Assembly (NCBI GenBank): GCA_963734695.1
Contig: CAVTIL010000011.1
Coordinates: forward strand, 158,144 to 222,143
Direction: 5' to 3'
Source of the DNA: an uncultured Acidobacteriota bacterium
GTDB lineage: Bacteria > Acidobacteriota > Vicinamibacteria > Vicinamibacterales > 2-12-FULL-66-21
DNA length: 64,000 nt
Below, piece by piece: positions 1,972 to 34,768 of this stretch (within the stretch, counting starts at the first letter, position 1; the number at the start of each line of letters is the position of its first letter). Made by a program: the position numbers and the translations under genes. The notes beneath the pieces are model-generated. The model did no database searches, was not told where the DNA came from, and saw only the letters and a list, made by a program, of their open reading frames with translations.

Positions 1972-1975
1972 TAGT

Positions 1976-3925
1976 TCAGCTGGCCGCGAGCTCCTCTTCG
2001 AGCAGCTGCTTCCTGTAAAGCGCGGCATAGAGTCCGCCGCGTGCGACGAGAGCGTCGTGATGCCCGCGCTCGGCTATCCGGCCGCGATCGAGGACGAAGA
2101 TTTGATCGGCATCCCGCACCGTCGAGACACGGTGCGCGACAATGATCGATGTCCGCTGGCGCATGACGCCCTTCAGCCTCGACAGGATTTCCTCCTCCGT
2201 ATACGTATCCACGGCCGACAGTGCATCGTCCAGGATCAGCACGCGCGGATCGACCATCAGCGCGCGCGCCAGCGCGGTTCGCTGCTTCTGGCCGCCCGAC
2301 AGGGTGATGCCTCGCTCCCCCACGGCCGTGTGGTACCCCTTGGGGAACGACTCGACGTCCTTGTCGAGCCGCGCCACCGCCGCTGCGTCCTTCATGCGCC
2401 GCTCGAGATCCGGGTCCATGCTGTGTTTCTCTGCATTCTTCTGTGACACGCTGTGTTTTTCTGTGTTTTTCTCAGGCCTGTGTTTTTCTGTGTTTTTCTG
2501 TGGCCTGGGTTCGTCTGTGTCTTTCTGCGGCCTGTGTTTTTCTGTGTTTTTCTGTGGCCCGTGTTCGTCCGTGTCTTTCTGCGGCCTGTGTTCGTCTGTG
2601 TTCTTCTGCGGCCGCACGCCGAACGCGATGTTCCCGGCAATCGACTCCGAGAACAGGAATGGCTCCTGGGGCACGAACCCGATGGCGCCCCGCAGGCGTT
2701 CGAGCGGTATTTCCCGCACATCGACTCCGTCCATGAAGACCGTGCCTGGCAGCGGATCGTGCAAACGCGGCAACAAAGAAATCAGCGTGGACTTGCCGGA
2801 GCCGGTCGCGCCAACGAACGCCACGGTCTGGCCCGGTTCGATCCGCAGCGACACGTCGTCGAGCACCGGCCGGTCTGAGGCGGGGTACGTGAAGGTCAGG
2901 TGACGGAGCTCGATCGCGCCGCTCAGCGTCACCATGCGTCCAGCTTCGGTCACGGACGCATCGCCGATATCGGGCGTCGCATCGAGGATCTCGAGCATGC
3001 GCTTCCACGACGCCATCCCGCGCTGCAGCATGTTCGTGACCCAGCCAAACGCGATCATCGGCCAGCTGAGCATCACGAGGTACGAGTTGAAGGCCACGAA
3101 GTCGCCAAGCGTGATGCGCCCGCGAATCACCTCGCGGCTTCCTACCCACAGGACGAGCAGCGCGCCGAGGCCCAGAAAGAAAGTCATGCTCGGATAGAAC
3201 ATGCCCTGCAGCCGGATGAGGACGCGATTCCGGCGGATGTATTCATCGTTCGCGACGCTGAACCGCGCGATCTCGTGCGGTTCCTGGTTGTAGGCCCGCA
3301 CCACCCGCACGCCGGCGAGCGCTTCCTGGACAACGGCGCTGAGATCGGCCAGCTGAGCCTGGATGGCTTCGAAGCGCTTGTGGATCGCGCTGCCGAAGTA
3401 TTTGACGCTCACCGACACCATGGGCAGCGGAATGAGCGCGATGAGCGTCAACCGTGCGTCGATCGACACCATCAGCACAATCGCGACCGCAAACACCAGG
3501 ATCGTGCTCGCGGAGTACATGACGGCAGGGCCGATCATCATGCGCACCGCGTTCAGGTCGTTGGTGGCGCGCGACATCAGGTCGCCCGTTCGGCGCGCCT
3601 GGTAGTACGCAAGCGGCATGTCCTGCAGCCGCGCGAAGAACGCATTCCGGATGTCGTATTCGATGTCGCGCGAGGCGCCGATGATGATTCGGCGCATGAG
3701 GAACTGGAAGACCGACCGCACGCACGTCACGCCGAGGATGAGGGCCGCGTACGTGATGAGCTTCTGACGCGTCACCGCCCGGGTCAGATCATCGATCGCA
3801 AAGCGGAGCACCCACGGGCCCAGGAGCTGGAACGTCGACGACAGCACGACACACATGAAGCCGAGCACGAACTGTCTCTTGTAGCGCAGAACAAAAGGAA
3901 GAAGACGACGGAAGGCGGGCCGCAT
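1976..3925 (-). CDS. ABC transporter ATP-binding/permease protein (type I exporter half-transporter, upstream partner) with repeat insert in the NBD
   Basis: 649-aa ORF. A TMD is followed by an NBD with Walker A GATGSGKST, Q-loop VPQEPFLF, signature LSGGQKQR, Walker B LILDDALS and H-loop VAHRVST. Tandem placement with the next half-transporter suggests a heterodimeric exporter. Confidence 0.9.
   Translation of the reverse strand: MRPAFRRLLPFVLRYKRQFVLGFMCVVLSSTFQLLGPWVLRFAIDDLTRAVTRQKLITYAALILGVTCVRSVFQFLMRRIIIGASRDIEYDIRNAFFARLQDMPLAYYQARRTGDLMSRATNDLNAVRMMIGPAVMYSASTILVFAVAIVLMVSIDARLTLIALIPLPMVSVSVKYFGSAIHKRFEAIQAQLADLSAVVQEALAGVRVVRAYNQEPHEIARFSVANDEYIRRNRVLIRLQGMFYPSMTFFLGLGALLVLWVGSREVIRGRITLGDFVAFNSYLVMLSWPMIAFGWVTNMLQRGMASWKRMLEILDATPDIGDASVTEAGRMVTLSGAIELRHLTFTYPASDRPVLDDVSLRIEPGQTVAFVGATGSGKSTLISLLPRLHDPLPGTVFMDGVDVREIPLERLRGAIGFVPQEPFLFSESIAGNIAFGVRPQKNTDEHRPQKDTDEHGPQKNTEKHRPQKDTDEPRPQKNTEKHRPEKNTEKHSVSQKNAEKHSMDPDLERRMKDAAAVARLDKDVESFPKGYHTAVGERGITLSGGQKQRTALARALMVDPRVLILDDALSAVDTYTEEEILSRLKGVMRQRTSIIVAHRVSTVRDADQIFVLDRGRIAERGHHDALVARGGLYAALYRKQLLEEELAAS
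2419..2612. repeat. 27-nt tandem repeat array (6 clean units plus a degenerate leader) inside the ABC transporter CDS
   Basis: Units at 2451, 2478, 2505, 2532, 2559 and 2586, e.g. ctgtgtttttctgtgtttttctgtggc. On the minus strand they translate as RPQKNTDEH/RPQKDTDEH/GPQKNTEKH and similar. Confidence 0.9.
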
Positions 3926-3943
3926 TCCTTTGAGTATATAGGT

Positions 3944-4030
3944 GCCGGGATCCGGGATCCGAGGTCCGGGGTCCGGGATCCGGGGTGCTGCCGGACTGAA
4001 TCCGCTGTCCGGGCCGGGATCGGATCCCGG
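3944..4030. repeat. GGATCC/CCGGG-rich micro-repeat tract with a 17-nt palindrome
   Basis: The tract ccgggatccgggatccgaggtccggggtccgggatccgggg lies at 3944..3987. The palindrome ccgggatcGgatcccgg lies at 4014..4030. Both sit between the TBDR stop and the ABC operon start. Confidence 0.7.
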
Positions 4031-4055
4031 ACCACGGACAACGGATCCCGACTAC

Positions 4056-8146: not shown

Positions 8147-8262
8147 CGGGTTCTACTGGGTTCCACAGGGTTCGTGGCTCGAACCGGCAGAGAGGGAGAA
8201 CCTTGTAGAACCCTGAACGAACCTTGTAGAACCGTGTAGAACCTAGGAGAACCCTGTAGAAC
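8147..8262. repeat. TAGAACC decamer repeat region arranged as an inverted repeat
   Basis: The left arm gggttctactgggttccacagggttcg contains GGTTCTAC, the reverse complement of the motif. The right arm is gagaaccttgtagaaccctgaacgaaccttgtagaaccgtgtagaacctaggagaaccctgtagaacc. It is homologous to 47799..47873. Confidence 0.85.
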
Positions 8263-10983
8263 CTATTGTTCCGAGGCGATCTTGATCCAGACGCCGAGGA
8301 ACCGATCGTCCCGGCTCTTCGGATCGACTGCGGAGGGCCGGAATCCCGTCGACGTCGTGATGGTCACGAGCGCTGCTCCACGTTGAGGATCTATCGGGAT
8401 CTGGACTCGGCGCTCTTCGCCCGCGCCAAGCGACATTTCGTCACGCCACCCGGACTGATTCGAACCTGATGTGGTTGTCCACCGGCGCATTGCGGACGAA
8501 CAGGGTTGCCATGCCGGATGATCCGTCGGGCTGGATGACGATGGCTGCGCTGCGCGCGCCGCCAATCCAGAACGCCTCTGGCTCGGGAAAGGCGCGGTCG
8601 TCCAGGAAGAATACGCTGGCAGTGCCATAACGCACGGCGCGGCGCGCGGAATCGCCGGCAAGCCGGGCGCTGGCCGGCACGACCGAGAGCGGCTCGATCG
8701 TCAGCGCTCGCACGCTCCGGCGGGCCTGTTCATCGCCGCGAACGACGATCGCGCGCACGTCAACGGGAAAATCCAGGTCGATCGGTTGCGGCGGGCTTCC
8801 GAGCGGACCGCTTTTCAGCGAGAACTGATCGCGGCCGATGCCGATCATCAACCAGCCGCTCGCACCGGCGCCGCGTGGACGCAGTCGGTATCGTCCGGCA
8901 GGAACCGCAGCGACCTGATACAGGGGCCGATCGTTTGGACCCGCGCCCCCGGGCGCCGTGGATGGCCTGGGCTCCATGCGCAGGAGCGGCGGCACTTCCT
9001 GAACGTCGAGCCGGTGGACCGCCGGGAGCCCAAACGTCAGCGTGTGGCGCTCCGACCCGAGACGGCGGAGGATTTCCAGCTGCGCCGGGGTAAGGTTCCG
9101 CCCGTCCACGCCGGCGAGCGCCCACACGATCGTCAGAGCTACCATCACGGCTGCGGCATAGGTGACGCCAGTGGCTGCCGCAAGCGCTCCCCGGCCCGCG
9201 CAGCCAGCTCTTTCCCTCGACCGCTCGCAACACCGCCCACCAGGCAACGAACGACACGGCCCAAATCGCGACATCTCTGATACAGGAGCATCTCGCGATC
9301 GCGCCACCACGCAGGGATACCGAGCGCCAGATCCGTCGTGCTGTTCAACCAGTCGAGCCACACGGCGTATGTTTCGCGGCCGTTGAATGCGAGGCGGCCA
9401 CCGTCGACGAACACGAGCGACGCCGATGTAAAGGCCGTCAGCGCGAGGGCGGCGAAGACGGTCGCACGCGTCGCGCGGTGTCGAATCCGCGTCCATCCGA
9501 CGCCGGCAGGAATCGCGAGAAGCGGAAGCATCGGGACGAAGAACCGCGCCGGCGCGCTGTGCCCACCCCACCACATCGCGAAGTGCGTCACGGCGATCAG
9601 GTACGGCACCACAACGAAGAGCAACTCACATCCGAGCCGCCGCGATCGGCGATCAGTCAGCATCGCGCCGAGGCCGGCAAATGACACGACCAGGACCGGC
9701 GCATAGGCCAGCAGGCCGAATCGCTGATCGAAAAACAGTCCCGTCAGGCCTCCGGGGATGAACGACGCCGACCCTTCTTCATTCGCATAGGGTGCCGACG
9801 GATCGGGCGTGCCATAGATCGCGATGAAGAACCCGATCCAGCAGATGGCGCTGATGGCGGGGATCGTCAGGAACGCGACCGCCTTCCCGGCGGCATTCCG
9901 TGTTTTCGACAGTCTCCAAATGATCAGCGCGCCGAGGCTGCCGGCGATGAGTGCAAACCTCGTATGGATCCACGGCAGCGCAGCCAGCGCCGCACCATGC
10001 AGCCACCATGGACCGATCCGCTCAGAGCCGGACTCCGATTCCTGCTCCGCACGGAGCAACGCCCAGACGCCGGTCAGTGCGATGACTCCACCAGGGCCGT
10101 CCGGGTACACCGTGAAACTGTGAAAGATCCCGCTGACGGTGAGCGTCACGGCCGCCCAGCCAAACCACGCGGCGTCAGCCCGGCGTGTCACCTGCCACGT
10201 GAGGAGCCACGACAGGGCGCTGCCCGCCGACGCGATCAGAATCAGAAAGACCACGACGCCGTGATATCCGGCGATGGCAAATGCGGGTGCGACGATTGCC
10301 GGGAGGCCAGGCGCATGGATCGAATAGATCTCGCCGTTCCGCCCGCGGCGGCGGAAATCCGGCTTCGGCAGTTCTCCGGCAAAGTATGCGCGGTAGTCGC
10401 CGTTGCGATGATTGTTCTCGATCCGCAGATCATGATCCTTCAACAGGCTCTGCGTGATGATCAGGTAGTGCGGCTCGTCGCCTCCCGGGACCGATGGAGA
10501 CGCCTGCCACGCCGCGATCGCATAAACCGCGCACGCGAGCGCACCCGCCGTCAAAGCCGGCCGATGGTCGAACACTTCCTGGAAGAGGCGCTCGCGAACG
10601 GCGCGAACAATCGCCGGCGACGAGAACGCCAGCGCCAGCATGATCCCCAGCCACACGGTCAGTGCGAGCGGCCCGGACCAGATGAGAAGCGCCGCAGGCA
10701 GTGACGCCGACAGCCACGGAAGCAGGAGCAGCAGGAGCAGCCAGAGCGGCGCGAGCGACGCACCCAATCGCCAGGCCAGCCAGACGCCCACTGCCGCGAA
10801 AGCCACGATCAACGCGGCTGAGATGGAGAGCGGAAGAAGCGCGATTCGTGAGTCGCCTGAGCCTGTGACTGCGACCGTGCCCTGCGACAACCAAGCGGCC
10901 AGCGCAGTGGCCAGGAGCGCTGCCACGAGCACGGAGCGTGGCACGGGAGACTCGCGAGGAATTGGCGGTAGAATGTCCCGCAT
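8263..10983 (-). pseudogene. GT-C-like polytopic membrane protein (putative glycosyltransferase) with C-terminal soluble domain, about 3 frameshifts
   Basis: ORFs 9145..11055, 8760..9257, 8441..9574 and 8263..8661 read through as one protein. It has many TM helices and the motif GGDEPHYLIITQSLLKDHDL. Junctions are ..AWWRDREMLLYQ|RDVAIWAVSFVAWWAVL.. at about 9275, ..RGPGS|ALAAATGVTYAAAVMVAL.. at about 9185 and ..NHIRFES|GWRDEMSLGAGE.. at about 8470. The start is probably MRDILPP (10983). Confidence 0.6.
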
Positions 10984-19985: not shown

Positions 19986-20014
19986 TTGACGGCACGCCAG
20001 GCCGGCTGTACAAT
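19986..20014 (+). promoter_or_regulatory. candidate sigma70-type promoter upstream of ssrA
   Basis: TTGACG (19986..19991), a 17-nt spacer and TACAAT (20009..20014). This would give a leader of about 70 nt before the mature 5' end. Confidence 0.4.
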
Positions 20015-20089: not shown

Positions 20090-20440
20090 GGGGGCGACCT
20101 AGATTCGACGGAGATATGGTTTCGCAGGATGCGTGCCGAGGACCATCACCCTCGTAAATCAGATGGAAAACAACATAACTGCGAACACGCAGCTCGCTCT
20201 CGCAGCGTAAAACCCTGTGAGCGTCCACTCCGGTCAGCCTGCGGGCCGGAACTGGATGTCATTTCAGTAGGCTGGCTGCTGACGGTTGCCTCGGACGTCA
20301 GCGGCGAGATCTCTTCGGGGTTGGTGCCCGGCGGTTTTTCCGCCTCTTCACGCCGGGCGCGACACTATAGAGGCGGATACGCATCGTAGATTCCTGTGGG
20401 GATATATTTTCGGACCCGGGTGCAAATCCCGGCGCCTCCA
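20090..20440 (+). ncRNA. ssrA: tmRNA (transfer-messenger RNA)
   Basis: The 5' end GGGGGCGACCTAGATTCGACGG and ..GCGTGCCGAGG..CCCTCGTAAA match tmRNA hallmarks. The tag ORF GCG AAC ACG CAG CTC GCT CTC GCA GCG TAA (20181..20210) encodes ANTQLALAA. The 3' T-arm is GGACCCGGGTGCAAATCCCGG. The acceptor strand CGCCTCC pairs with 5' GGGGGCG through a G-U at position 3. The discriminator is A at 20440, and CCA is not encoded. Confidence 0.9.
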
Positions 20441-20576
20441 ACCTTCGCTCACGCTTGCCAACGAGAGCGTGAGCTACGGTTGGCAAGCCACGCGAAGGTT
20501 GTCCGCCGTAGCGCGCAGCGCGAAGGTGGACCCCTATCCCGTTTCTTCAACAACGGGGGGCTTAGCCCCTCGTTCC
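20441..20576 (-). repeat. structured intergenic mosaic repeat (CCTTCGC...GCGAAGG stems plus GC hairpin) abutting the tmRNA 3' end
   Basis: Contains the inverted repeat CAACCTTCGC...GCGAAGGTTG and ccgtagcgcgcagcgcgaaggtggacccc, which is shared with 33271..33296 and 51743..51770. The hairpin aacggggggcTTAgcccctcgtt lies at 20552..20574. Confidence 0.75.
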
Positions 20577-21562: not shown

Positions 21563-21663
21563 GATAGTCGAAATGGGGAATGCGTGCGAATACCAGAGAC
21601 GACAGGATCTGAACGTCGTCCGTTTGACGTGTCTCCCTTGTCTAGACTATATATAGCCCAGAC

Positions 21664-22003
21664 ATGGGAAAGACCTCCGCCAACCCCGAGTTGCTGCCGG
21701 GTACAGCTGTACCTCCTGATTCTCCGCACGCTCCGCGCGGGTCCGCTGCACGGCTATGCGATTGCCAAACGGATCAAACAGGCGTCGGGGCAGGGGCTCG
21801 ATATCGAAGACGGCTCCCTGTACCCAGCTTTGAACCGCATGCTCGTCAAGGGCTGGCTGAGGGCAGAATGGGGCACCTCCGAGAATAACCGCAAGGCCCG
21901 TTTCTATCGCCTCACGCCGGCGGGACGGAAGCAGCTCGCGCGCGAAGCGGACATCTTCGATCGCCTGGTGCTCGCGATCCAGTGCGTCATGCGGACGGTG
22001 TGA
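21664..22003 (+). pseudogene. PadR family transcriptional regulator, one frameshift near the N-terminus
   Basis: MGKTSANPELLPGT (frame of the ATG at 21664) joins LYLLILRTLRAGPLHGYAIAKRI...SLYPALNRMLVKGWL..RFYRLTPAGRKQL (frame of ORF 21584..22003). The junction is at about 21705, inside the palindrome GGTACAGCTGTACC. Confidence 0.8.
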
Positions 22004-22004
22004 C

Positions 22005-24731
22005 ATGTCGGCCTGGAAGGAACTACTTCGCCGCGCGGGATATCTGGTCCGACGCTCCCAATTTGACCGGGATCTCGACGATGAGATGGGCTTCCATATC
22101 GAGACCCGCGCAGAGGAACTGCAGCGGGACGGCGTGCCGCCGGACGTCGCCCGTCAACGCGCCCGGCGCGAATTTGGCTCGCGCGCCCGCGTGAGCGAAG
22201 ACACGCGCGCGGCGTGGCAGGTCATGTGGATTGAGGATCTCTGGCGCGACCTTCGATACGGGACGAGGGCGCTGGCGAGGAGCCCCGGGTTCGCCGCGGT
22301 CGCGATCCTCTCGTTGGGCATCGGCGTGGGCGCGAACTCCGTGATGTTCACCCTGGTCGATGCCCTCTTACTCCAGCCACCGAACGTGCCCCGGCCAAAC
22401 GAATTGGTCGCGCTGGTGTCTACGGCGCGCGAGTCCAACGCGGCGACCGTGTCCTATCCCGATTTCGCCGCCGTCCGCGATCGGAGCGATAGCTTTCAGG
22501 AGTTGGCCGCATTCACGGAGGTTTCGACGGGCTTGGCCCGCGCGGGTGCGGCGCCGAAGGTGAAGGCCGGCAAGCTGGTCACCGAAAATTTCTTCCGCGC
22601 GATGGACGCGCGCCCGGAGTTGGGACGGCTGTTTGGCGTAGGGGACCATCGCGTGGACGATCAGGTGACGATCCTGAGCCACGCCTGCTGGCAGGAGGAG
22701 TTTGGCGCCGATCCGGCGGTGGTCGGAAAGCCCGCGCGCATTAACGGCGTCGAATTCACCATTGTCGGCGTCATGCCCACGCGCTTCACCGACGTGGACG
22801 ACAACCTCTCCGACGACACGCCCGACTTCTATGTGCCTCTGCGAGCGGCCCGGCAGATCGGCCCCACGCCCGACCTGCTGGATAACCGCGGTCAGCGGTC
22901 GCTCACCGCCTTCGGTTATCTGAAGCCCGGCGTCCCTATGGCGCGTGCCCGCGCGGAGGTAGCGACGATCGCCGGCACGCTCGAAAAGGATTTTCCGGCC
23001 ACCAATCGCGATCGCAGTCTGACGGTGCGGACCGTTCTGGAGTATCGGTCCGGCGGTGGTGGAGGACTGGTGGCGGGCGCGCTGGCCATGATCCTGGCGG
23101 GGATGGTGCTGCTGGTGGCGTGCGCGAATCTCGCCGGCCTGCTCACGTGTCGCGTGCCAGCCCGGGCGCGCGAAATGGCGATGCGACGCGCCATTGGGGC
23201 GGGACGCGTGAGACTGATCCGCCAGTTGCTCACCGAGAGCCTGCTGCTGGCCGTCGGCGGGGGGATCGTCGGCATCGCGCTCGGCTACATCCCCATCCAG
23301 TTGGGAAAGCGGCTTGCGATCGAGTTCGATCCCCAGGGAGCGGCGTCGTATCCGTTTGTCATGAACGTGCGCGTGGTGGTGTTCAGCCTGACGCTGGCGA
23401 TCCTCAGTGTGGTCGTGTTTGGCCTCACACCCGCGTTTCACGCGACGCGCGCCGACGTGGCAAGCGTGATGAAGGGGGTGGTGGGTGTCGCACCGCGACG
23501 TCGATGGTGGGGACGCCTCCTTCGTGGCCGCCATCTGCTTGTCACCGGACAAGTGGCGGTCGCCTTGCTGCTGCTGACCATCACCACGGTGGTGTACGCG
23601 GGTGTGTATCAAGGCCTGGTCACGTCGTTCCGAAACCCGGGATTTCACATCGATCACCTCGTGGCGGTGGATTTTGATCCCTCGACGATCCACTTCAAGG
23701 CGGCCCGTGCCGGGCAGTTCTTCAAGGATCTCGCGGGACGGCTGCGCGGCGCCCGTGGGGTGCAAGCGGTCACGTTGGAGTATCAGGACGTCGCGGTCAT
23801 CCGCCCGGAGAGTCCGATCGCTCGCGAGGACGTCAGGACGTCGGGCGTGTGGATCGACGACGGCTTCTTCGACACGCTCGATATTCCGATTGTCGAGGGG
23901 CGCGCGATTCGGCGAGCCGACCTCGGGACGTCCCCCGCCGTGGCGATGGTCAATGACGTGCTGGCGCGGCGCTACTGGCCGGGGCAGAGTGCCGTCGGCA
24001 AACAGATCCATCTGAGCACCGGCCAATGGGTGGCGGTGATCGGCGTCGTCCGCCTGAACACCTTCATGTCGTTTGGCAGCCCACCGATGGACACGGTCTT
24101 TCTGCCCTACGGCGAGCCGACGCAACGGGACATTCGTCTCTTAGCGCGGTCCGCTGGCGATCCGCAGGCGCTCGTGGATCCCATCCGGAAGGTGGTCCGC
24201 GATCTCGATCCCGATCAAGCCATGCCCGACGCCCTGACGTGGCAGAGCAGCATGAACGTCTTCATCAAGGCCGCGTTGCTGAGCCTCGACACCCTCGGTG
24301 CGATGGGCGCGTTGGGGCTGCTGCTGGCGCTGGTGGGCTTGTACGGACTGATCGCCTACGAAGTAACATCGCGTACGCGCGAGATCGGCATTCGCATGGC
24401 GTTGGGCGCGCGCGCTGGCGAGGTGGTGCGCATGGTGCTGCGCCAAGGACTCGCGCTGGCGGTGTGTGGCGTGGGGGTGGGCTTGGCGCTCACGTGGGGG
24501 GTATTACAGGCGGCGACGGCGGTCTTGCCGGGTGCCGGGTCAAGCGCGGCGAACCCGCCCGAGCCGAATGGGGGTTCCCAGATTACCGCCAATTTCGGGA
24601 CCGAGTCGTTCGGCGGCGAGGCGTTTACCGTCCTAGTGATCGTGGTCCTGATCGTCACCATTCTCTCGGCGTATCTTCCGGCGCGTCGCGCCTCCCGAGT
24701 GGATCCCAACGTCGCGCTGCGAGCCGAATAG
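22005..24731 (+). CDS. ADOP-family duplicated FtsX/MacB-like permease (no ATPase domain)
   Basis: 908 aa, with the ATG 1 nt after the PadR stop. It has two MacB-like periplasmic domains and two FtsX 4-helix modules (..REIGIRMALGARAGEVVRMVL..). The C-terminus is PARRASRVDPNVALRAE. Confidence 0.9.
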   Translation: MSAWKELLRRAGYLVRRSQFDRDLDDEMGFHIETRAEELQRDGVPPDVARQRARREFGSRARVSEDTRAAWQVMWIEDLWRDLRYGTRALARSPGFAAVAILSLGIGVGANSVMFTLVDALLLQPPNVPRPNELVALVSTARESNAATVSYPDFAAVRDRSDSFQELAAFTEVSTGLARAGAAPKVKAGKLVTENFFRAMDARPELGRLFGVGDHRVDDQVTILSHACWQEEFGADPAVVGKPARINGVEFTIVGVMPTRFTDVDDNLSDDTPDFYVPLRAARQIGPTPDLLDNRGQRSLTAFGYLKPGVPMARARAEVATIAGTLEKDFPATNRDRSLTVRTVLEYRSGGGGGLVAGALAMILAGMVLLVACANLAGLLTCRVPARAREMAMRRAIGAGRVRLIRQLLTESLLLAVGGGIVGIALGYIPIQLGKRLAIEFDPQGAASYPFVMNVRVVVFSLTLAILSVVVFGLTPAFHATRADVASVMKGVVGVAPRRRWWGRLLRGRHLLVTGQVAVALLLLTITTVVYAGVYQGLVTSFRNPGFHIDHLVAVDFDPSTIHFKAARAGQFFKDLAGRLRGARGVQAVTLEYQDVAVIRPESPIAREDVRTSGVWIDDGFFDTLDIPIVEGRAIRRADLGTSPAVAMVNDVLARRYWPGQSAVGKQIHLSTGQWVAVIGVVRLNTFMSFGSPPMDTVFLPYGEPTQRDIRLLARSAGDPQALVDPIRKVVRDLDPDQAMPDALTWQSSMNVFIKAALLSLDTLGAMGALGLLLALVGLYGLIAYEVTSRTREIGIRMALGARAGEVVRMVLRQGLALAVCGVGVGLALTWGVLQAATAVLPGAGSSAANPPEPNGGSQITANFGTESFGGEAFTVLVIVVLIVTILSAYLPARRASRVDPNVALRAE

Positions 24732-25336
24732 GCTGTCTGCGGCCCCTGCACTGGCCACGGAAGCGACGTCCTTCGACAATGAGACAGATTGTCCGGTATT
24801 GGAGCCTTCCGTCTTCGGAGGCGACGGCGCCGGGCTTCGGCACGGGGGAGCAGTGTTGGAACACCACGCAGTTCTGCGGAAAGAGTCAAACGCCGCGTTC
24901 CACGAACTTCACGGAATCGCAGTGCCGCTGTAACGAAATCGGCTCACGACCCGGCGCCGGGAAGCCCTTCCCGGCGCGCCAAGAACCGAGATTCTTCGGA
25001 AGGGTACGCCCATTTCATCGTGACGCTCGGCGACGGTGTCACGTGGCAGGAGGCACGCCGCCACTTCGAGAAGCTGCCAGCGCAACTTGCGAACGCGTTC
25101 CCCGATGTGAACCAGAAGTTCAAGTCTGTTTCGTTCTACGATCTCGGGTTACTCAGCTGCGCTTCTCAATGAACCGTTGATTTGGATTTCGGTACACAAG
25201 ACTGGCAGTTGGCTCGTTTCGTATCTATGGATGCGCGTCACGGTTGCAGACACTCTGTTTGTGTCAGCGGTGATCGAGTACGCTGGCTCCCACTCGCAGC
25301 GAAAGCAGCGGCCTCACCGGACCACGGCGTTACATT

Positions 25337-25471
25337 AGAAGCTGTCTCATAAACCTGACGCTCATTCTAAGATGCGAGCGAGCCGTGCGAGCGAGCCACG
25401 CGATCGGAGCGCGCCGTCGAAGCGGCGCGCGAGAGCGCGTGTAGGGGAGTCCGAGGGGCGAAGCCCCTCGG
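25337..25471 (-). repeat. intergenic mosaic repeat, full copy (hairpin + body + tail module)
   Basis: Its reverse complement is about 92% identical by eye over about 100 nt to 54422..54527. The hairpin ccgaggggcGAAgcccctcgg lies at 25451..25471. The tail agaagctgtctcataaacctgacgct..aagatgcgagcgagccgt is shared with 37905..37955. Confidence 0.85.
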
Positions 25472-25515
25472 AGAGAGAATAGTATCGAACATACTTAGGC
25501 AGGACAGGGACGAAG

Positions 25516-25995
25516 ATGACCACCAGCCTTGCTACGACATTCCTCTTGTCGCTCCTGATCGGCGTCATTGCGGGACTCCGCGCGATGACGGCGCCGGCCG
25601 CGCTCAGTTGGGCAGCCAGAACGGGTTGGATCAACCTGGCCCCCACCAGCCTCGCGTTCCTGGGGTACGCATTCACGCCGTGGATTCTGACGCTGCTGGC
25701 GCTCGCCGAACTGGTGACAGACCAATTGCCGACGACGCCAAGTCGCAAGGCGCCCGGTCCGTTCGGCGCTCGAATTGTCTCGGGAGCCCTGTCGGGCGCA
25801 GCGATCGGAGCGTCTCGCGGCGCGCTCTTGGCGGGACTGATTGCGGGGATTCTCGGTGCCGTGATTGGCACGCTGGGCGGATACGCATTTCGTGCGCGAC
25901 TCGCCTCGGCGTTTGGAAGAGATCGCCCAGCGGCGCTCATCGAAGATGCCATCGCAATCGGCGGCGCCTTCCTCATTGTGGCGGCGCTGCAGTAG
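25516..25995 (+). CDS. DUF4126-like small integral membrane protein
   Basis: 159 aa, Gly/Ala-rich, with 4-5 TM helices. The motif IAGLRAMTAPAALSWAA is as I recall for DUF4126. Confidence 0.55.
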   Translation: MTTSLATTFLLSLLIGVIAGLRAMTAPAALSWAARTGWINLAPTSLAFLGYAFTPWILTLLALAELVTDQLPTTPSRKAPGPFGARIVSGALSGAAIGASRGALLAGLIAGILGAVIGTLGGYAFRARLASAFGRDRPAALIEDAIAIGGAFLIVAALQ

Positions 25996-26077
25996 TCCGA
26001 TTGACAGCCCGTATCGCCATGCTCGCTCGCAGCGTCGACGAGCATCGTCAACACGCGTTCATGCTAAGGTCTGCGGC

Positions 26078-27198
26078 ATGAAAACGTCACGCCTCGTCAG
26101 CGCACTGCTGATCGGCTGTGTCTGCACGCTCGCCCTGGCGCAGGCGCCAGCGGGCCGCTGGTCCGAGGCGAAGGCCAACGAGTGGTACGCGAAGCAGCCA
26201 TGGCTGGTCGGCAGCAACTACATTCCGGCAACCGCGATCAACGAGCTCGAGATGTGGCAGGCCGAGACGTTCGATCCGAAAACGATCGACAAGGAGCTCG
26301 GCTGGGCCGAAGGGCTCGGCATGACGACGATGAGGGTGTTCCTGCATGATTTGCCGTGGCAGCAGGACGCCAAGGGTTATCAGGGGCGAATCAATCAGTT
26401 CCTCGACATCGCCGCGAAGCACAAGATCAAGCCGCTGCTCGTGCTCTTCGATTCGTGCTGGGATCCGAATCCGCATCTCGGCAAGCAGCACGCTCCGAAA
26501 CCTGGCGTGCACAACTCCGGCTGGCTGCAGGCTCCCGGCGCGAAGGCGCTGCAGGATCCGAAGGAGTATCCGCGGCTCAAGACCTACGTGACGGGCGTTG
26601 TCGCCGCCTTCGGCAAGGACTCGCGCGTGCTCGGCTGGGACGTCTGGAACGAGCCCGACAACATGAACACGAACAGCTACGGCAGCCAGGAGCCGAAGAA
26701 CAAGGTCGATCTCGTGCTCGAAGCTGCTGCCGCAGGTGTTCGCGTGGGCGCGCGAAGCGGGCGCCGAGCAACCGTTGACGTCGGGCGTGTGGAAGGGCGA
26801 CTGGTCGAGCGACGACAAGCTCTCGCCGATGGAGCGCGTGCAGCTCGAGAACTCGGACGTCATCTCGTTCCACAACTACGACAACGGCGCCGGAATTCGA
26901 GAAGCGCATCCAGTGGCTGCAGCGCTTCCATCGTCCGATCCTCTGCACCGAGTACATGGCGCGCGGCAACGGCAGCACGTTCGACGGCTCGCTGCCGATC
27001 GCGAAGAAGTACAAGGTGGCCGCGATCAACTGGGGCTTCGTCGCCGGGAAGACGCAGACGTATCTGCCGTGGGACTCGTGGCAGAAACCCTACGTCGACC
27101 GCGAACCGACGGTGTGGTTCCACGAGATCTTCAAGCAGGACGGAACGCCGTACAAGCCGGACGAGGTGGATCTGATCCGGAAGCTGACGGGACGCTGA
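26078..27198 (+). pseudogene. secreted glycoside hydrolase (GH5-like TIM barrel), two frameshifts
   Basis: The signal peptide is MKTSRLVSALLIGCVCTLALAQA, followed by ..MRVFLHDL.., ..LVLFDSCWD.. and ..GWDVWNEPDN. Junctions are KVDLVLE|LLPQVFAWAREAG at about 26720 and HNYDNGA|EFEKRIQWLQRFHRPILCTEYMARGNG at about 26892. The ends of ORFs 25865.., 26736.. and 26956.. join into one protein. Confidence 0.7.
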
Positions 27199-27263
27199 CG
27201 TCCGCACTCGAGTGCGTGGCAAGTGCTACCGATTGCGTTCTGTTAATCTGCGGGTAGACGGTC

Positions 27264-27291
27264 TTGACGTGCGGTGCTACATATGTAGAAT
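27264..27291 (+). promoter_or_regulatory. candidate promoter with palindromic operator for the second PadR-ADOP pair
   Basis: TTGACG (27264..27269), a 16-nt spacer and TAGAAT (27286..27291). The 12-nt palindrome CTACATATGTAG (27278..27289) overlaps the -10 box. The ATG at 27299 lies 7 nt after the -10 box. Confidence 0.5.
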
Positions 27292-27298
27292 ACGTCAT

Positions 27299-27625
27299 AT
27301 GCACGCGCGCTCCCTCTCGTATGCGGCCACAGCCGTGTTGGATGCCATCGGCCAAGGCCACCGGTACGGCTTCGATGTCATCGCGGTGACCGGTCTCGCG
27401 AGCGGCACTGTCTATCCAGCCCTCCGGCGCCTTGAAGAAGCTGGTTACGTCGAATCCCGGTGGGAAGATCATCGCGTGGCGCAGCGAGAGGTCCGCCCGG
27501 TGCGCAAGTACTACGAGGTTACTGAGACCGGACAGGCGGCGCTTACGGCAGCGCTGCTGCGCTATCGAGCAATGGGGCGTCGCCGTCGGGCCTCGGCCCG
27601 AATCCTTCGACCGTCTCGCACCTAA
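27299..27625 (+). CDS. PadR family transcriptional regulator
   Basis: MHARSLSYAATAVLDAIGQGHRYGFDVIAVTGLASGTVYPALRRLEEAGYVESRWE...KYYEVTETGQAAL shows a PadR winged-helix pattern. Confidence 0.85.
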   Translation: MHARSLSYAATAVLDAIGQGHRYGFDVIAVTGLASGTVYPALRRLEEAGYVESRWEDHRVAQREVRPVRKYYEVTETGQAALTAALLRYRAMGRRRRASARILRPSRT

Positions 27626-27637
27626 GGGGATGCGATC

Positions 27638-30406
27638 GTGTCGCCCAAGCGAGAACTGCGGCCGCACCGGTGGATCATTCGCGTCGTCAGCGCGTTCATT
27701 CCCAAACGACTTCGACCCGAATGGCGCCGCGAGTGGGAAGCGGAACTCCTGCATCAGGAGTCAACCTTCGCGAAGTGGAATCGGCCGCGCTGGCGGACGC
27801 GGATGGATTTGGTGCGCCAAAGTCTCGGGTCAACGTGGGATGCTGTCTGGCTCCAGCGCCGTCGGCTGGAGGAGGACTTCGCGCAGGACGTCCGTCACGG
27901 ATTCCGCCTCATCGGCCGGGCACCCGGGCTCGCGCTCGCTGCCTGCACCTCGCTCGCGATAGGGATCGGAGGTACGACCGCGGCGTTCACCATGATCGAT
28001 GCGGCACTGCTTCGGCCTTGGCCCTACCCTGATGCTGACCGCCTGATGGTGGTGAGTACGAATCTGGGACGCTACTTTTCTCCACCCGCGTTCCGGCGGC
28101 TTTCAGATCGCCACGATGGGTTGGACCACCTGACGGCGGCAGAAGCGCACGGATTCCTCATGAACTTCGGAGGTCAGGCGGTGCTTGTGAACGGGCACCG
28201 GGTCTCGGCGGAAGTGGTCGCGCTGTTAGGGTTGAATGGTCCCCTTCACCCTGAGGCTGGACGTGCTTTCATTCCGTCGGAGTTCGCGCCCGACAGCGAG
28301 CCGGTCGTCGCGATCAGTCATCGTCTGTGGCAGACGCAGTATGCGTCGGCCGACAGTATTGTCGGGCAGACGATTACTGCCGACGGCAAACCCTTGCGCG
28401 TCGTCGCCGTCCTCTCGCGAGAGTTCGATTTCTTTCCCGACTCGGATCTTCTCGTACCACTGACATTTGCCGAGCCGGGCTCGTACAGCGAGTATGCCCG
28501 CAGGCTCGAGGTGTACGGATCGCTCCGACCGGGCCTGACACCGGATCTGGCAGCATTGATGCTGGCTAGCGCGACCCGCTATTTTTCGCCCGCCCAGGTG
28601 GCTTCTGTGGAAAGCGTACGCGAACGTGTGTTCCGTGGCTTTCGGCCGACGGTCAAGGTTCTGTCGGTGGTGTCGCTAATCATTCTGGTTGTCGGCTGCT
28701 TGAACTTTGCGACGCTGCTTACTGTCAGATCGTCCGATCGGCAGCCGGAGCTCGCGGTTCGCATTGCGCTCGGCGCGGGCCGCCAACGTATCGTCCGCCA
28801 ACTCGTCACCGAAGCACTCGTATTGTCCTTCGCCGGCGGAGTCGCCGGAGTACTGCTCGCATATCTCGGCCGCGGGGTTCTCGCCGGGAACACCGTTGAA
28901 GGAATGCTTGCATTGCCGCGGAACCTTGAGTGGAGGGTCATTGCATTCGCGACGCTCCTTGCGGTCACGACGGGCGTGTTATTCAGCCTCGGACCGGCCC
29001 GACGGGCGACGGCGCGTGTGGACCTCGAGTCCGCGTTGCGCGACGCGGTATCTTCGCGTCTCCACGGGATTGCGCTTGGTGGACTTCGCGCGAACTGGCT
29101 CGTCGGATCGATCCAGGTGGCATTTACGATGGTGCTGCTTGTCGGGGCGGCACTCTTGGTCAAGAGCCTGCTCCGCATTCAGGCCTTCGATCCCGGCTAC
29201 GACAGCGCCCACGCGGTGACGCTACGGTTCGAGCTGCCGCGTTCCCGCTATCGCACCGACGCGGATGTCGCACGTTTCGTGGAGCTGCTCACCGAGCGCA
29301 TTCGCGGCGTGCCGGGCGTTGACGATGTAGGCGCCGCATCTAGCCTGCCGTTCTTCGTCGGAGCTTTGGGGATGCGCATGTTCCTGCTGGAAGGCCCGAT
29401 CCACGTCAGCGGACCGCCGGAAGCGATGCCGCTCGGCTGGCGCGTACCCCCGCCGCCCCCGCCGCCGCCCGGCATGATCGACATGCCGCCCCTTGATTTC
29501 TTTTCTGCACTCTCGTGCGAAGTTGATCCGGCGTTCTTTCGAACAATGCGCATCCCCTTGGTGAAGGGGCGCGACTTCAGTCCCTTTGACACGGCGGCAT
29601 CGCCGCCAGTCGTCATCATCAACCAGGCTATGGCTGCGCGATATTGGCCGGATACCGATCCGGTTGGCCGCCGCATGAGACTGGGGCCGTTATTTCCCTG
29701 GAAGACGATCGTCGGCGTTGTCGGCAACATCCGACGCTTTGCGCGAGACGATGAGATCCGCTCCGAGTATTACGAGCCGTTCGCGCAGGCGGGCGATCAG
29801 CGGCGCCTTTTCGCTCGCCTCGGAACCGACGTCGCGACGCGAGCGTTGTTTGGCCAGCCTACGGTGAGTCCAGTGATGGTGGTGGTGCGCAGCCGCCTCA
29901 GCGTCCGCGCCATCGCGAACGCAGTTGCTCCGTTGGTCCGTACGATCGACCCGGTACTGCCCATTGCGCAGGTCTCGAGTTTGCGGGAAGCATTGGACAA
30001 CGCGATCGCCGATCGTCGTTTTATATTGAGTCATATTGTCGGGTTCGCGGCGCTGGCGCTGCTGCTTGCGGCGGTGGGAGTCTACGCCGTCACGTCACAC
30101 GTGGTCCGACGGCGAGGACGCGAGCTGAGTATCCGCGCCGCACTCGGTGCGCGAAGTGCTCACCTGATCTGGCTTCCTATGCGCGACGGAGTAGTCGTGG
30201 CGGTCGTCGGCGTGTTCTTCGGTGGTCTTCTGTCGATTGCGCTGACGCCGCAACTCCGCGGGTTCCTGTACGAGGTCAATCCGTGGGACTGGAGCACGTT
30301 GTTGTTGGTCGCAGTGCTACTGGTTCCTGCCGTGATATGCGCATCGTATTTTCCGGCGCGCCGGGCCGCGCGAGTCGATCCGTTGACGGCGTTGAAATCG
30401 ATTTGA
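27638..30406 (+). CDS. ADOP-family duplicated FtsX/MacB-like permease
   Basis: 922 aa. The GTG at 27638 has AAGGGGA 7 nt upstream. The N-terminal prefix is ..RLRPEWRREWEAELLHQE. It has two FtsX modules and the C-terminus PARRAARVDPLTALKSI. Confidence 0.9.
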   Translation: MSPKRELRPHRWIIRVVSAFIPKRLRPEWRREWEAELLHQESTFAKWNRPRWRTRMDLVRQSLGSTWDAVWLQRRRLEEDFAQDVRHGFRLIGRAPGLALAACTSLAIGIGGTTAAFTMIDAALLRPWPYPDADRLMVVSTNLGRYFSPPAFRRLSDRHDGLDHLTAAEAHGFLMNFGGQAVLVNGHRVSAEVVALLGLNGPLHPEAGRAFIPSEFAPDSEPVVAISHRLWQTQYASADSIVGQTITADGKPLRVVAVLSREFDFFPDSDLLVPLTFAEPGSYSEYARRLEVYGSLRPGLTPDLAALMLASATRYFSPAQVASVESVRERVFRGFRPTVKVLSVVSLIILVVGCLNFATLLTVRSSDRQPELAVRIALGAGRQRIVRQLVTEALVLSFAGGVAGVLLAYLGRGVLAGNTVEGMLALPRNLEWRVIAFATLLAVTTGVLFSLGPARRATARVDLESALRDAVSSRLHGIALGGLRANWLVGSIQVAFTMVLLVGAALLVKSLLRIQAFDPGYDSAHAVTLRFELPRSRYRTDADVARFVELLTERIRGVPGVDDVGAASSLPFFVGALGMRMFLLEGPIHVSGPPEAMPLGWRVPPPPPPPPGMIDMPPLDFFSALSCEVDPAFFRTMRIPLVKGRDFSPFDTAASPPVVIINQAMAARYWPDTDPVGRRMRLGPLFPWKTIVGVVGNIRRFARDDEIRSEYYEPFAQAGDQRRLFARLGTDVATRALFGQPTVSPVMVVVRSRLSVRAIANAVAPLVRTIDPVLPIAQVSSLREALDNAIADRRFILSHIVGFAALALLLAAVGVYAVTSHVVRRRGRELSIRAALGARSAHLIWLPMRDGVVVAVVGVFFGGLLSIALTPQLRGFLYEVNPWDWSTLLLVAVLLVPAVICASYFPARRAARVDPLTALKSI

Positions 30407-33550: not shown

Positions 33551-34768
33551 ATGCGTCTACTGCTGCCACTGCGCATCGCCCTGAAAGCGTTGCGCGGCAA
33601 CGTCATGCGCACGTTGCTGACAATGCTCGGCGTCATCATCGGTGTGAGCGCCGTGATCTGCACGGTGTCCATCGGCGAGGGCGCGTCCGCCAAGATCCGC
33701 GAGGCCATCGTCAACATCGGTGCCAATCTCGTGTGGGTCGAAGCGGGTGGCGTCAACCGCAACGGCGTACGGACCGGAACCGGTGGCACCAAGACCTTGA
33801 CGGTGGCGGACATGCTGGCCATCAGGGAACAGGTTCCCGCCGTGACCAACGTCTCCCCGCAGGCGGACGGTCGCGTCCAGCTCGTGTTCGGCAATCAAAA
33901 CTGGAGCGCGAGCGTTCGCGGCGTCTCCCCGGAGTACGTGGCGCTGAAGAACTGGCCGATGAATAGGGGCGGCATGTTCACCGAGCAGGACGTCGAACGG
34001 GCCTCGCCGGTGTGCGTGCTCGGTCAGACGGTCACGACGATGTTGTTCGGAGAGCAGGATCCGGTGGGGGAAATGGTTCGAGTCTTCAACTTGCCGTGCC
34101 GCGTCGTCGGCGTATTGGCCACCAAGGGCCAGTCAGCGACGGGCCAGGATCAGGACGATACGCTGCTGATGCCGTACACCACGGTCATGAAGAAGATCAA
34201 AGGACAGCCCTGGTTGGACGACATCCTGATGTCGGCCACCTCGCCGGAGATGGTCTCGATCGCGCAAGAGCAGCTCGCGGATTTGTTGCGCGCCCGTCAT
34301 CACATCCGCCCCGGCGCCCAGGACGACTTCAACTTGCGCAATCCGACCGAGATTGCGGAGACGCTCGCCGCGTCTGCGCGCACGATGGAGGGGCTTCTGG
34401 CCAGCGTCGCGTCCGTCTCCTTGTTGATCGGCGGAGTCGGGATCATGAACATCATGCTGGTGTCCGTGTCCGAGCGCACCCGCGAGATTGGCTTGCGGCT
34501 CGCGATGGGCGCCCGCAATCGCGATGTCCTGCGTCAGTTCTTGTGCGAAGCCATCGTGCTGAGCATGAGCGGAGGACTGATCGGGATTGGGCTTGGGGTC
34601 GCGGCGAGCCATGCCATTTCCGATCTTTTCGGCTGGGCGACTCGTGTCTCTCCGAATGCCATCGCGGTATCGGTGCTCTTCGCGCTCGCGGTCGGCATTT
34701 TCTTTGGCTACTATCCCGCGACCCGCGCCGCCACGCTGGATCCGATTGAAGCGCTCCGATACGAGTGA
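33551..34768 (+). CDS. MacB/LolE-type ABC transporter permease (single FtsX module)
   Basis: 405 aa. An N-terminal TM is followed by a MacB periplasmic domain and FtsX helices (..SERTREIGLRLAMGARNRDVLRQFL..). The C-terminus is PATRAATLDPIEALRYE. Confidence 0.85.
   Translation: MRLLLPLRIALKALRGNVMRTLLTMLGVIIGVSAVICTVSIGEGASAKIREAIVNIGANLVWVEAGGVNRNGVRTGTGGTKTLTVADMLAIREQVPAVTNVSPQADGRVQLVFGNQNWSASVRGVSPEYVALKNWPMNRGGMFTEQDVERASPVCVLGQTVTTMLFGEQDPVGEMVRVFNLPCRVVGVLATKGQSATGQDQDDTLLMPYTTVMKKIKGQPWLDDILMSATSPEMVSIAQEQLADLLRARHHIRPGAQDDFNLRNPTEIAETLAASARTMEGLLASVASVSLLIGGVGIMNIMLVSVSERTREIGLRLAMGARNRDVLRQFLCEAIVLSMSGGLIGIGLGVAASHAISDLFGWATRVSPNAIAVSVLFALAVGIFFGYYPATRAATLDPIEALRYE

Follow-up and report, generated by a model that had tools for sequence, protein, structure and literature searches.

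Putative operators and matched permease prefixes of PadR–permease operons in an uncultured acidobacterium

The closest described counterpart of the genes analysed here is the dyad of a HAAS domain and a PadR-like winged helix-turn-helix protein, in which HAAS has been proposed to pass a membrane signal to PadR and so bring about its release or reconfiguration (Ravi et al., mSystems 2024; PMC11237479). The HAAS superfamily comprises DUF1700, DUF1129 and DUF1048, three-helix domains in which helix 3 has a GxP kink. Among the architectures listed by Ravi et al. (PMC11237479) are HAAS joined to FtsW_RodA_SpoVE beside a PadR gene and, in Acidobacterium capsulatum and under the label HAAS, the architecture that is the subject of this report. 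We analysed a stretch of 64,000 nucleotides (nt; G+C content 64%; hereafter the window) from an uncultured Acidobacteriota bacterium (contig CAVTIL010000011.1, positions 158,144–222,143), in which short padR genes lie next to genes for permeases of the ADOP and LptF/LptG-like (LptF/G-like) types. Judged by the names of its homologues, the window falls close to the Bryobacteraceae. The TIGRFAMs descriptions of the two families concerned, TIGR03433 (padR_acidobact) and TIGR03434 (ADOP), already remark on the regular adjacency of such genes, on their large paralogous expansion in Acidobacteria and on the missing ATPase. Few gene families of soil Acidobacteria are as expanded, or as poorly understood, as the ADOPs, and the literature yielded no functional study of ADOP, TIGR03433, TIGR03434 or perm_prefix. 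An earlier note on this DNA, made from the letters alone, had called the regulatory logic testable. That logic is not open ground: the pairing of PadR and permease genes and a mechanism for it were both put forward by Ravi et al. (2024). What is new here are the conserved operator motifs, a strict matching of PadR type to permease type and a number of corrections to that earlier reading.

We propose that padR1–ADOP1, padR2–ADOP2 and padR3 with its LptF/G-like gene are self-repressed operons whose repression would be relieved by the permease through its cytoplasmic N-terminal prefix, a reading that we consider probable, though by no means secure. The genes themselves were assigned by NCBIfam and Pfam scans, which confirmed the families named in the earlier note (TIGR03434, PadR, MacB_PCD and FtsX). 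Three padR genes match PF03551 (gathering score 27), all on the forward strand: padR1 (21664–22003), padR2 (27299–27625; 108 amino acids, 54 bits) and padR3 (50386–50697; GTG start, 103 amino acids, 39 bits). PadR1 passes the curated TIGR03433 cut-off of 101.8 bits (130.7 bits); PadR2 and PadR3 stay below it (37.9 and 23 bits) and are PadR proteins by Pfam only. No similarity between PadR1 and PadR2 was found by phmmer; PadR2 and PadR3 are related at E = 5e-9. Membership of the ADOP family, defined as a full-length TIGR03434 score above the curated cut-off of 622.3 bits, was established for three intact genes, again on the forward strand: ADOP1 (22005–24731; 908 amino acids, 682 bits), ADOP2 (27638–30406; 922 amino acids, 663 bits, with a GTG start and the ribosome-binding site AAGGGGA) and ADOP4 (51887–54394; 835 amino acids, 674 bits). 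MacB_PCD (PF12704) and FtsX (PF02687) were each found twice in all three. The four ADOP permeases claimed in the earlier note are thereby confirmed by profile, but the minus-strand copy, ADOP3 (45341–47764), is broken by two frameshifts. ADOP1 carries perm_prefix_1 at residues 12–67 (NF038403, cut-off 30 bits; the full protein scores 52.9 bits and its N-terminus, scanned separately, 57.7 bits), and the N-terminus of ADOP2 is an 81-residue prefix of a second type. The padR gene and the permease gene are 1 nt apart in padR1–ADOP1 and 12 nt apart in padR2–ADOP2, and they overlap by 4 nt in the case of padR3 and the LptF/G-like gene (50694–51642, forward strand).

The promoter of padR1–ADOP1 has the -35 box TTGACG (21624–21629, forward strand), and its -10 box lies within a 36-bp inverted repeat (TCCCTTGTCTAGACTATA/TATAGCCCAGACATGGGA; 21634–21669), the putative PadR1 operator. 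This repeat covers the -10 box, the predicted transcription start and the ATG at 21664, which stands in its right arm. Both palindromes noticed here earlier are present (GTCTAGAC, 21640–21647, and CTATATATAG, 21647–21656, forward strand), but they are only the inner parts of the one larger repeat that takes in the start codon. For comparison, 80 genome loci with PadR1-type genes were fetched and the 100 nt upstream of each were compared. Members that are at least 65% identical have in common the consensus TCCCcTgTCcgGaCTATAtATAGTCTgGACAaGGGA, which has the -10 TATA at its centre and follows a TTGAC; the element is a composite of the form GTCYRGAC-N8-GTCYRGAC with the flanks TCCC and GGGA, and in most PadR1-related loci TTGAC sits 16–18 nt upstream of the central TATATA. 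A position weight matrix, built from 48 sites of related loci, was used for this element because it is a conserved motif and not a perfect palindrome; a simple score for pairs of complementary arms separated only 18% of the PadR1-family upstream regions from controls. With the matrix, the site in the window scores 51–52 bits on either strand, no second site of 10 bits or more was found in the 64 kb, and exactly one site per locus was detected at 49 loci (614 kb scanned). Across orthologues, identity is 0.69–1.0 in the operator, 0.44–0.96 at third codon positions of padR1 and about 0.27, the random level, between positions -90 and -41; for the window against one of them (locus L013), the operator is 0.89 identical and the third positions 0.51. 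At the seven orthologous loci the sequence 5' of the -35 box cannot be aligned. By these comparisons, the putative PadR1 operator is conserved beyond the level of synonymous sites.

Distant PadR1-type genes (55–64% identity; Vicinamibacterales and Gemmatimonadaceae) have different palindromes in the same position, one of which is TCCCATCG-ATAGA-CGATGGGA with the ATG within its right arm, and at some of these loci a second copy of the palindrome lies upstream of the -35 box. The position of the start codon relative to the element varies within the family. In the clade of the window the ATG lies inside the operator arm (GACATGGGA); in many paralogues of the PadR1 family (L020, L025 and L026 among them) the outer right arm, (A/G)GGGA, precedes the ATG by 0–8 nt and may also serve as the ribosome-binding site.

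The window copy of padR1 has an irregularity of its own. One base too many, the A at 21705, puts the PadR domain in another frame than the ATG at 21664: in a DNA alignment the window reads GGTAC[A]GCTG, and the seven orthologous loci read GGTAC-GCTG or GGTAC-GTTG, all without the A. When repaired, the product (MGKTSANPELLPGTLYLLILRTL...; 112 amino acids) is 98% identical over its full length to 112-residue metagenome proteins. A start at GTG 21584 or at other in-frame codons was considered and rejected, as the orthologues begin at the ATG and lack the extra base. The additional A also produces a perfect 14-bp palindrome, GGTACAGCTGTACC, which contains CAGCTG.

The promoter of padR2 (TTGACG at 27264–27269, a spacer of 16 nt and TAGAAT at 27286–27291, forward strand) matches the consensus at 10 of 12 positions and overlaps the palindrome CTACATATGTAG, the only copy in the window. 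The palindrome had been recognized earlier with coordinates one base off; its true span is 27277–27288 (forward strand). A second box, CATATG, spans the start codon of padR2 (ATG 27299). For this type 80 metagenome loci were fetched, and most of the PadR2 homologues are 108 residues long. At nine loci whose PadR proteins are 60–96% identical, the columns C-T-A-C-x-T-A-x-G-T-A-G-A-x-T are invariant or nearly so and the flanks diverge, the start codon following 7–11 nt past the box columns. CTATGTAGAAT-like boxes are retained in distant members of lower G+C content, in many cases as repeats at 16-bp intervals; the leaders of these members are longer and have GGAGG-like Shine-Dalgarno motifs. A resemblance to this box was also seen elsewhere in the window, in two arrays of a 10-bp tandem repeat (AGAACCTTGT) at 47801–47872 (7.2 copies) and 8201–8263, the first of which is flanked by the starts of two genes, the broken ADOP3 (47764, minus strand) and a gene for a major facilitator superfamily transporter (47883). 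The repeat unit holds TGTAGAA, similar to the PadR2-family box CTATGTAGAAT (8 matches versus 0.05 expected).

For padR3, the promoter (TTGACA at 50350–50355, 16 nt, TAAGAT at 50372–50377, forward strand) overlaps the palindrome TCTTACA-ATA-TGTAAGA, which we take as the putative PadR3 operator; this is the third palindrome of the earlier note, present as claimed but of fuller extent (50360–50376, forward strand). PadR3 homologues have 101–105 residues. In three of the four PadR3 lineages (L171, L175–179 and L180–184; 70–96% protein identity) the pattern TTGAC(A/C)-(G/C)CAGTCTTACA-N3-TGT(A/C)AGA is kept, with the start 7–9 nt after the -10 box; it is absent from the fourth (L172–174). None of the 12 PadR3-type loci has an ADOP gene directly downstream. 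Wherever the next gene is visible it codes for an LptF/LptG-like permease of 297–330 residues (315–330 in the intact orthologues of the window gene), and in most loci it overlaps the stop codon of the PadR3-type gene by 4 nt. In the window this gene is frameshifted, an extra G near 51173 being a 1-nt insertion relative to L171 (blastn), and PF03739 matches its second piece. A hairpin (TCCGAGAGGC-ttc-GCCCCTCGGA; 51649–51671, forward strand) and 245 nt separate it from ADOP4. A single operon of padR3 and ADOP4 was rejected on both grounds, the family pairing and the intervening hairpin and distance. By this comparison the LptF/G-like permease is the real partner of PadR3, and the number of ADOPs in PadR modules is therefore two out of four: the claim that three ADOPs are preceded by a PadR gene holds for ADOP1 and ADOP2, but not for ADOP4, since PadR3 goes with what had been called the intervening permease.

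The elements of PadR1, PadR2 and PadR3 are thus all conserved at orthologous loci, and the earlier interpretation of the palindromes as operators gains support from this and, for PadR1, from conservation above the synonymous-site level: all three behave like operators as far as sequence comparison can tell. The three proteins represent three distinct subfamilies with three unrelated operator motifs; the layout that they share is therefore better described as a common design than as a repeated sequence element.

The relation between PadR type and permease prefix was surveyed in 184 related loci (1.09 Mb, all open reading frames) and the window; PadR1-type relatives alone number at least 8,000 in the protein collection at E = 1e-10 or better. 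An ADOP-like gene follows the padR gene at 81 of 83 assessable PadR1-type loci and at 65 of 66 PadR2-type loci, and these matches include the N-terminal prefix, since similarity starts at residues 1–23 of ADOP1 or ADOP2. Iterative searches retrieved 98 open reading frames with prefix 1 and 100 with prefix 2, none of them with both. Genes with prefix 1 have a PadR1-type gene adjacent in 83 cases and one gene further upstream (tandem arrangement) in 5, and one has no PadR gene within 3.8 kb; the corresponding numbers for prefix 2 and PadR2-type genes are 65, 20 and 1. Neither prefix was ever found with the other PadR type, so that 88 pairs of the first kind and 85 of the second stand against no cross pair. 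Ten ADOP N-termini lack a prefix: six have no PadR gene within 3.8 kb, two (in the window and in L171) lie behind a PadR3-type gene and its LptF/G-like gene, and the remaining two are apparent exceptions, one a broken gene and the other possibly equipped with a different prefix. The window itself follows the same rule, both prefixed ADOPs having a PadR gene and both prefix-less ones having none. The tandem cases, 20 of the PadR2 type and 5 of the PadR1 type, are two prefixed ADOP genes in a row behind one padR gene, the second about 3 kb downstream of it (e.g. L148, L152, L112, L124, L150 and L158).

The statement that no ABC ATPase adjoins the ADOPs was borne out in the window, where ABC nucleotide-binding domains are confined to two fused exporter genes (31–4051, minus strand). 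It extends to related loci, as a profile search of the 184 loci detected no such domain within 4 kb on either side at 180 of them; an open reading frame with the domain occurs at the other four, one of which (L147) has no ADOP after its padR gene. Two of the grounds for refutation named in the earlier note, palindromes not conserved at related loci and ATPase genes linked to the permeases, do not apply.

The combination of a TTGAC(G/A) -35 box with an AT-rich -10 box overlapping a palindrome can be read at all three padR genes, as had been noted, and so can the short distance of 7–10 nt between the -10 box and the start codon (8–10 nt for padR1, 7 nt for padR2 and 8 nt for padR3). No Shine-Dalgarno motif precedes the three starts because the -10 box fills its place. 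The near-leaderless spacing is a property of the close clades but not of the wider families. In the wider PadR1 family the distance between operator centre and start codon is 12–59 nt, and the wider families imply leaders from about 1–3 nt up to about 47 nt, with Shine-Dalgarno-like motifs visible in the sequence. In a generic promoter scan of the region from 20.5 to 31 kb the PadR2 promoter was the sole call (1.6 expected). The pattern TTGACR-N15-19-TANNNT occurs four times on the two strands of the window, against 0.79 expected; the four sites include the PadR2 promoter, the PadR3 promoter and one upstream of the gene for transfer-messenger RNA (tmRNA).

In the mechanism that we favour, each operon would be transcribed from a sigma-70-type promoter (TTGACR, 16–18 nt, AT-rich -10 box) into an mRNA that is leaderless or has a leader of a few nt. 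A subfamily-specific inverted repeat overlaps the -10 box; that of PadR1, and possibly that of PadR2, takes in the start codon as well. PadR would bind this operator as one dimer, or as two in the case of the 36-bp site, and block RNA polymerase, giving autorepression. Induction would go through the permease: its periplasmic or membrane part would engage a substrate or a stress signal, upon which the cognate prefix would bind or reconfigure PadR and relieve repression. In ADOP1 and ADOP2 the prefix, perm_prefix_1 (probably of the HAAS type) in the one and a second, unrelated type in the other, occupies the position that the ATPase has in MacB. ADOP4 and the broken ADOP3, prefix-less and without a PadR gene of their own, are outside this circuit. 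Gene identities, operon layout, the conservation and uniqueness of the operator, the pairing of PadR and prefix and the lack of linked ATPases are observed; for repression, the contact of PadR with the prefix, the transcription start sites and the inducing signal we rely on inference.

A G-x-[SP] turn is conserved in the prefix of ADOP1, which also has the motif REFGS, and a single-sequence AlphaFold2 model of residues 1–95 shows two long helices (predicted local distance difference test score, 69). A Foldseek search with this model gave no match in the PDB at E = 0.001 or better, and profiles of prefix 1 and prefix 2 run against PDB sequences returned noise only. The HAAS label is directly supported for ADOP1 alone, because only there do the NF038403 match and the same published architecture come together.

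Several results weigh against the proposed circuit. If the frameshift in padR1 is real, the window copy yields no repressor. The window has no more short perfect palindromes than chance would give (138 whose arms measure 6 bp or more, compared with 125 ± 12 in dinucleotide shuffles); because palindromes as such are not in excess, significance has to come from their position and conservation. The sixth base of the padR1 -10 box, TATATA, is not the usual T, and the promoter scan did not call this box. The ADOP1 prefix has no match at E ≤10 to the Pfam DUF1700/HAAS models, and neither the ADOP2 prefix nor the N-terminus of the LptF/G-like protein has any Pfam or NCBIfam match at that threshold. 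Detectable homology between prefix 1 and prefix 2 was rejected by hhalign, which aligned only the last 17 columns, where the ADOP core begins. Finally, part of the matching of PadR and prefix could reflect lineage, because the loci were gathered with PadR queries from different collections; both pairs do, however, occur together in one genome, that of the window.

It is also conceivable, if on balance unlikely, that autorepression is real and that induction is due to a small molecule binding PadR directly, the prefix serving another purpose such as folding, oligomerization or the docking of an unlinked ATPase. It is well established that PadR proteins sense ligands, that of Bacillus subtilis being an example (PMC5728393), and prefix 2, which matches no recognizable family, would accommodate such a role. 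However, all three PadR proteins of the window are short (103–112 residues) with the PadR domain as the only one found by Pfam, and the one-to-one match of PadR and prefix, together with the prefix-less ADOPs that have no PadR gene, is hard to explain without contact between the two.

Two further explanations concern the palindromes rather than the permeases, and we consider both improbable. The transcripts might not be leaderless, with a promoter farther upstream and the palindromes acting as roadblock operators within the leader; operator centres 12–59 nt from the start, leaders of about 7–47 nt in many members of the wider families and their Shine-Dalgarno-like motifs would fit this, whereas the starts in the window have no Shine-Dalgarno motif, the orthologues show no conservation upstream of the -35 box, and TTGACR-N16-TAnnnT is rare in the window, with three of its four occurrences directly upstream of genes. 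We give still less credence to the idea that the palindromes have no operator role and simply come with AT-rich -10 regions when the genome is GC-rich, their conservation being due to promoter function and to recent duplication or transfer of whole modules. The chance-level number of perfect palindromes agrees with it, as does the inherently palindromic nature of TATATATA, and the -35 box is precisely where the conserved block begins, as it might if a mobile or duplicated segment had its edge there. However, the PadR1 arms (TCCCyTGTCyrGAC and its mirror image) reach 18 nt to each side and include spacer bases that promoters rarely constrain; the operator is 0.69–0.89 identical where third codon positions are down to 0.44–0.51; in distant subfamilies this place is taken by different palindromes, many of which likewise end in TCCC...GGGA and some of which are present twice; and the PadR2 box is invariant at 60% protein identity.

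A more far-reaching version of the favoured mechanism is that prefixed ADOPs are not transporters driven by ATP but ATPase-independent transmembrane sensor-effectors, the prefix standing in for the ATPase domain of MacB. MacB-like mechanotransmission would run in reverse: a ligand would set the periplasmic domains in motion, and the long stalk helices would transmit this inwards, so that a cognate PadR is captured or released. This is speculative and we think it rather doubtful. If true, mutually exclusive classes of prefix, PadR and operator would insulate many paralogous one-operon circuits within one acidobacterial cell and constitute a large two-protein signalling repertoire parallel to two-component systems.

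The two prefix-less ADOPs and the remainder of the window need only brief description. ADOP4 begins almost with the family core, position 3 of the TIGR03434 profile aligning to its residue 6. ADOP3 consists of three open reading frames covering TIGR03434 positions 1–69, 76–538 and 552–803 (82.6, 477.8 and 292.9 bits), with frameshifts near 47526–47540 and 46096–46138, and phmmer found no PadR gene near it. With those in padR1 and in the LptF/G-like gene, this makes four single-base frameshifts within about 30 kb, which may be assembly errors or real decay into pseudogenes. The hairpin behind the LptF/G-like gene belongs to a repeat of about 45 nt, made up of a hairpin with a 10-bp stem (TCCGAGGGGC-ttc-GCCCCTCGGA) followed by CTCCCCTACACGCGC and also present in L171. 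Of its copies in the window (25450–25472, 51649–51671 and 54422–54444), two stand right after stop codons, one behind the LptF/G-like gene and one behind ADOP4, whereas the remaining copy is oriented the other way round; the repeat, which has no T-run, looks like an element of the repetitive extragenic palindromic type or of the terminator type. A single, non-duplicated MacB_PCD and FtsX permease of 405 residues is encoded at 33551–34768 (forward strand) with no ATPase or PadR gene adjoining. One of the fused ABC exporters (1976–4051, minus strand) has an insert in its nucleotide-binding domain, at about residues 480–570 of the product, that consists of the tandem peptide repeats RPQKNTDEH, RPQKDTDEH and PQKNTEKH between Walker A and LSGGQ. 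The tmRNA gene (ssrA) lies at 20090–20443 (forward strand; Rfam RF00023, 162.6 bits), and the promoter-like site TTGACG-N17-TACAAT is found about 75 nt upstream of it (19986–20014).

The results provide putative operator sequences for three PadR subfamilies, with a 36-bp PadR1 consensus that picks out one site per operon, and a rule by which the prefix type predicts the PadR type and most ADOPs that lack a prefix also lack a PadR gene. With these in hand, the published HAAS–PadR hypothesis can be tested directly.

Compared with the HAAS–PadR dyad, the operons of the window have the same outline, a short standalone PadR gene directly upstream of a membrane protein with a small helical cytoplasmic N-terminus, and the adjacency of the genes in the dyad is found here with gaps of 1 nt and 12 nt. 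They differ in that the ADOP2 prefix and the N-terminus of the LptF/G-like protein are different, unclassified domains in the same gene linkage; in addition, the published work is one of comparative genomics and gives no operators or promoters (PMC11237479). The TIGR03433/TIGR03434 pair corresponds to PadR1 and to the three ADOPs above the cut-offs, but not to PadR2 and PadR3, which score below TIGR03433, nor to the association of PadR3 with an LptF/G-like permease. With the type VII ABC transporters MacB, LolCDE and FtsEX, ADOPs share the membrane topology and the periplasmic core domain, and the MacB model NF007826 aligns solely with the permease part of each ADOP. Unlike these transporters, an ADOP is duplicated internally, so that a single chain forms a pseudo-dimer, and an ATPase is neither fused nor linked to it; prefixed ADOPs carry a helical prefix of about 80 residues at the place of the N-terminal ATPase of MacB.

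Among PadR regulators, LstR and LltR of Listeria are repressors that mainly control their own operons, which have transmembrane products (Hauf et al. 2019; PMC6624303), and lstR sits with an FtsW/RodA homologue (PMC6624303); the membrane partners are other ones, the host is a firmicute and the operators are unrelated. The operator of B. subtilis PadR consists of two 6-bp palindromic repeats with a 6-bp spacer, PadR dimers binding the palindromes (PMC5728393). In contrast, CTACAT/ATGTAG of padR2 has no spacer, TCTTACA-ATA-TGTAAGA of padR3 a 3-bp spacer, and the PadR1 element is a 36-bp composite; like the known operators these elements are palindromic, but their geometry is another one. The likeness of the TACA..TGTA core to known PadR half-sites that the earlier note had suggested is not supported, the order being opposite and the spacing different from those in B. 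subtilis (PMC5728393). The nearest experimentally supported analogue of the capture that we propose is SdpR–SdpI of B. subtilis, where a membrane immunity protein sequesters the autorepressor of its own operon (PMC2910880). As in the proposed circuit, the operon is autorepressed and the membrane protein captures the repressor in response to an external ligand; SdpR, however, is of the ArsR family and SdpI is unrelated to FtsX permeases, so that the resemblance is one of mechanism only.

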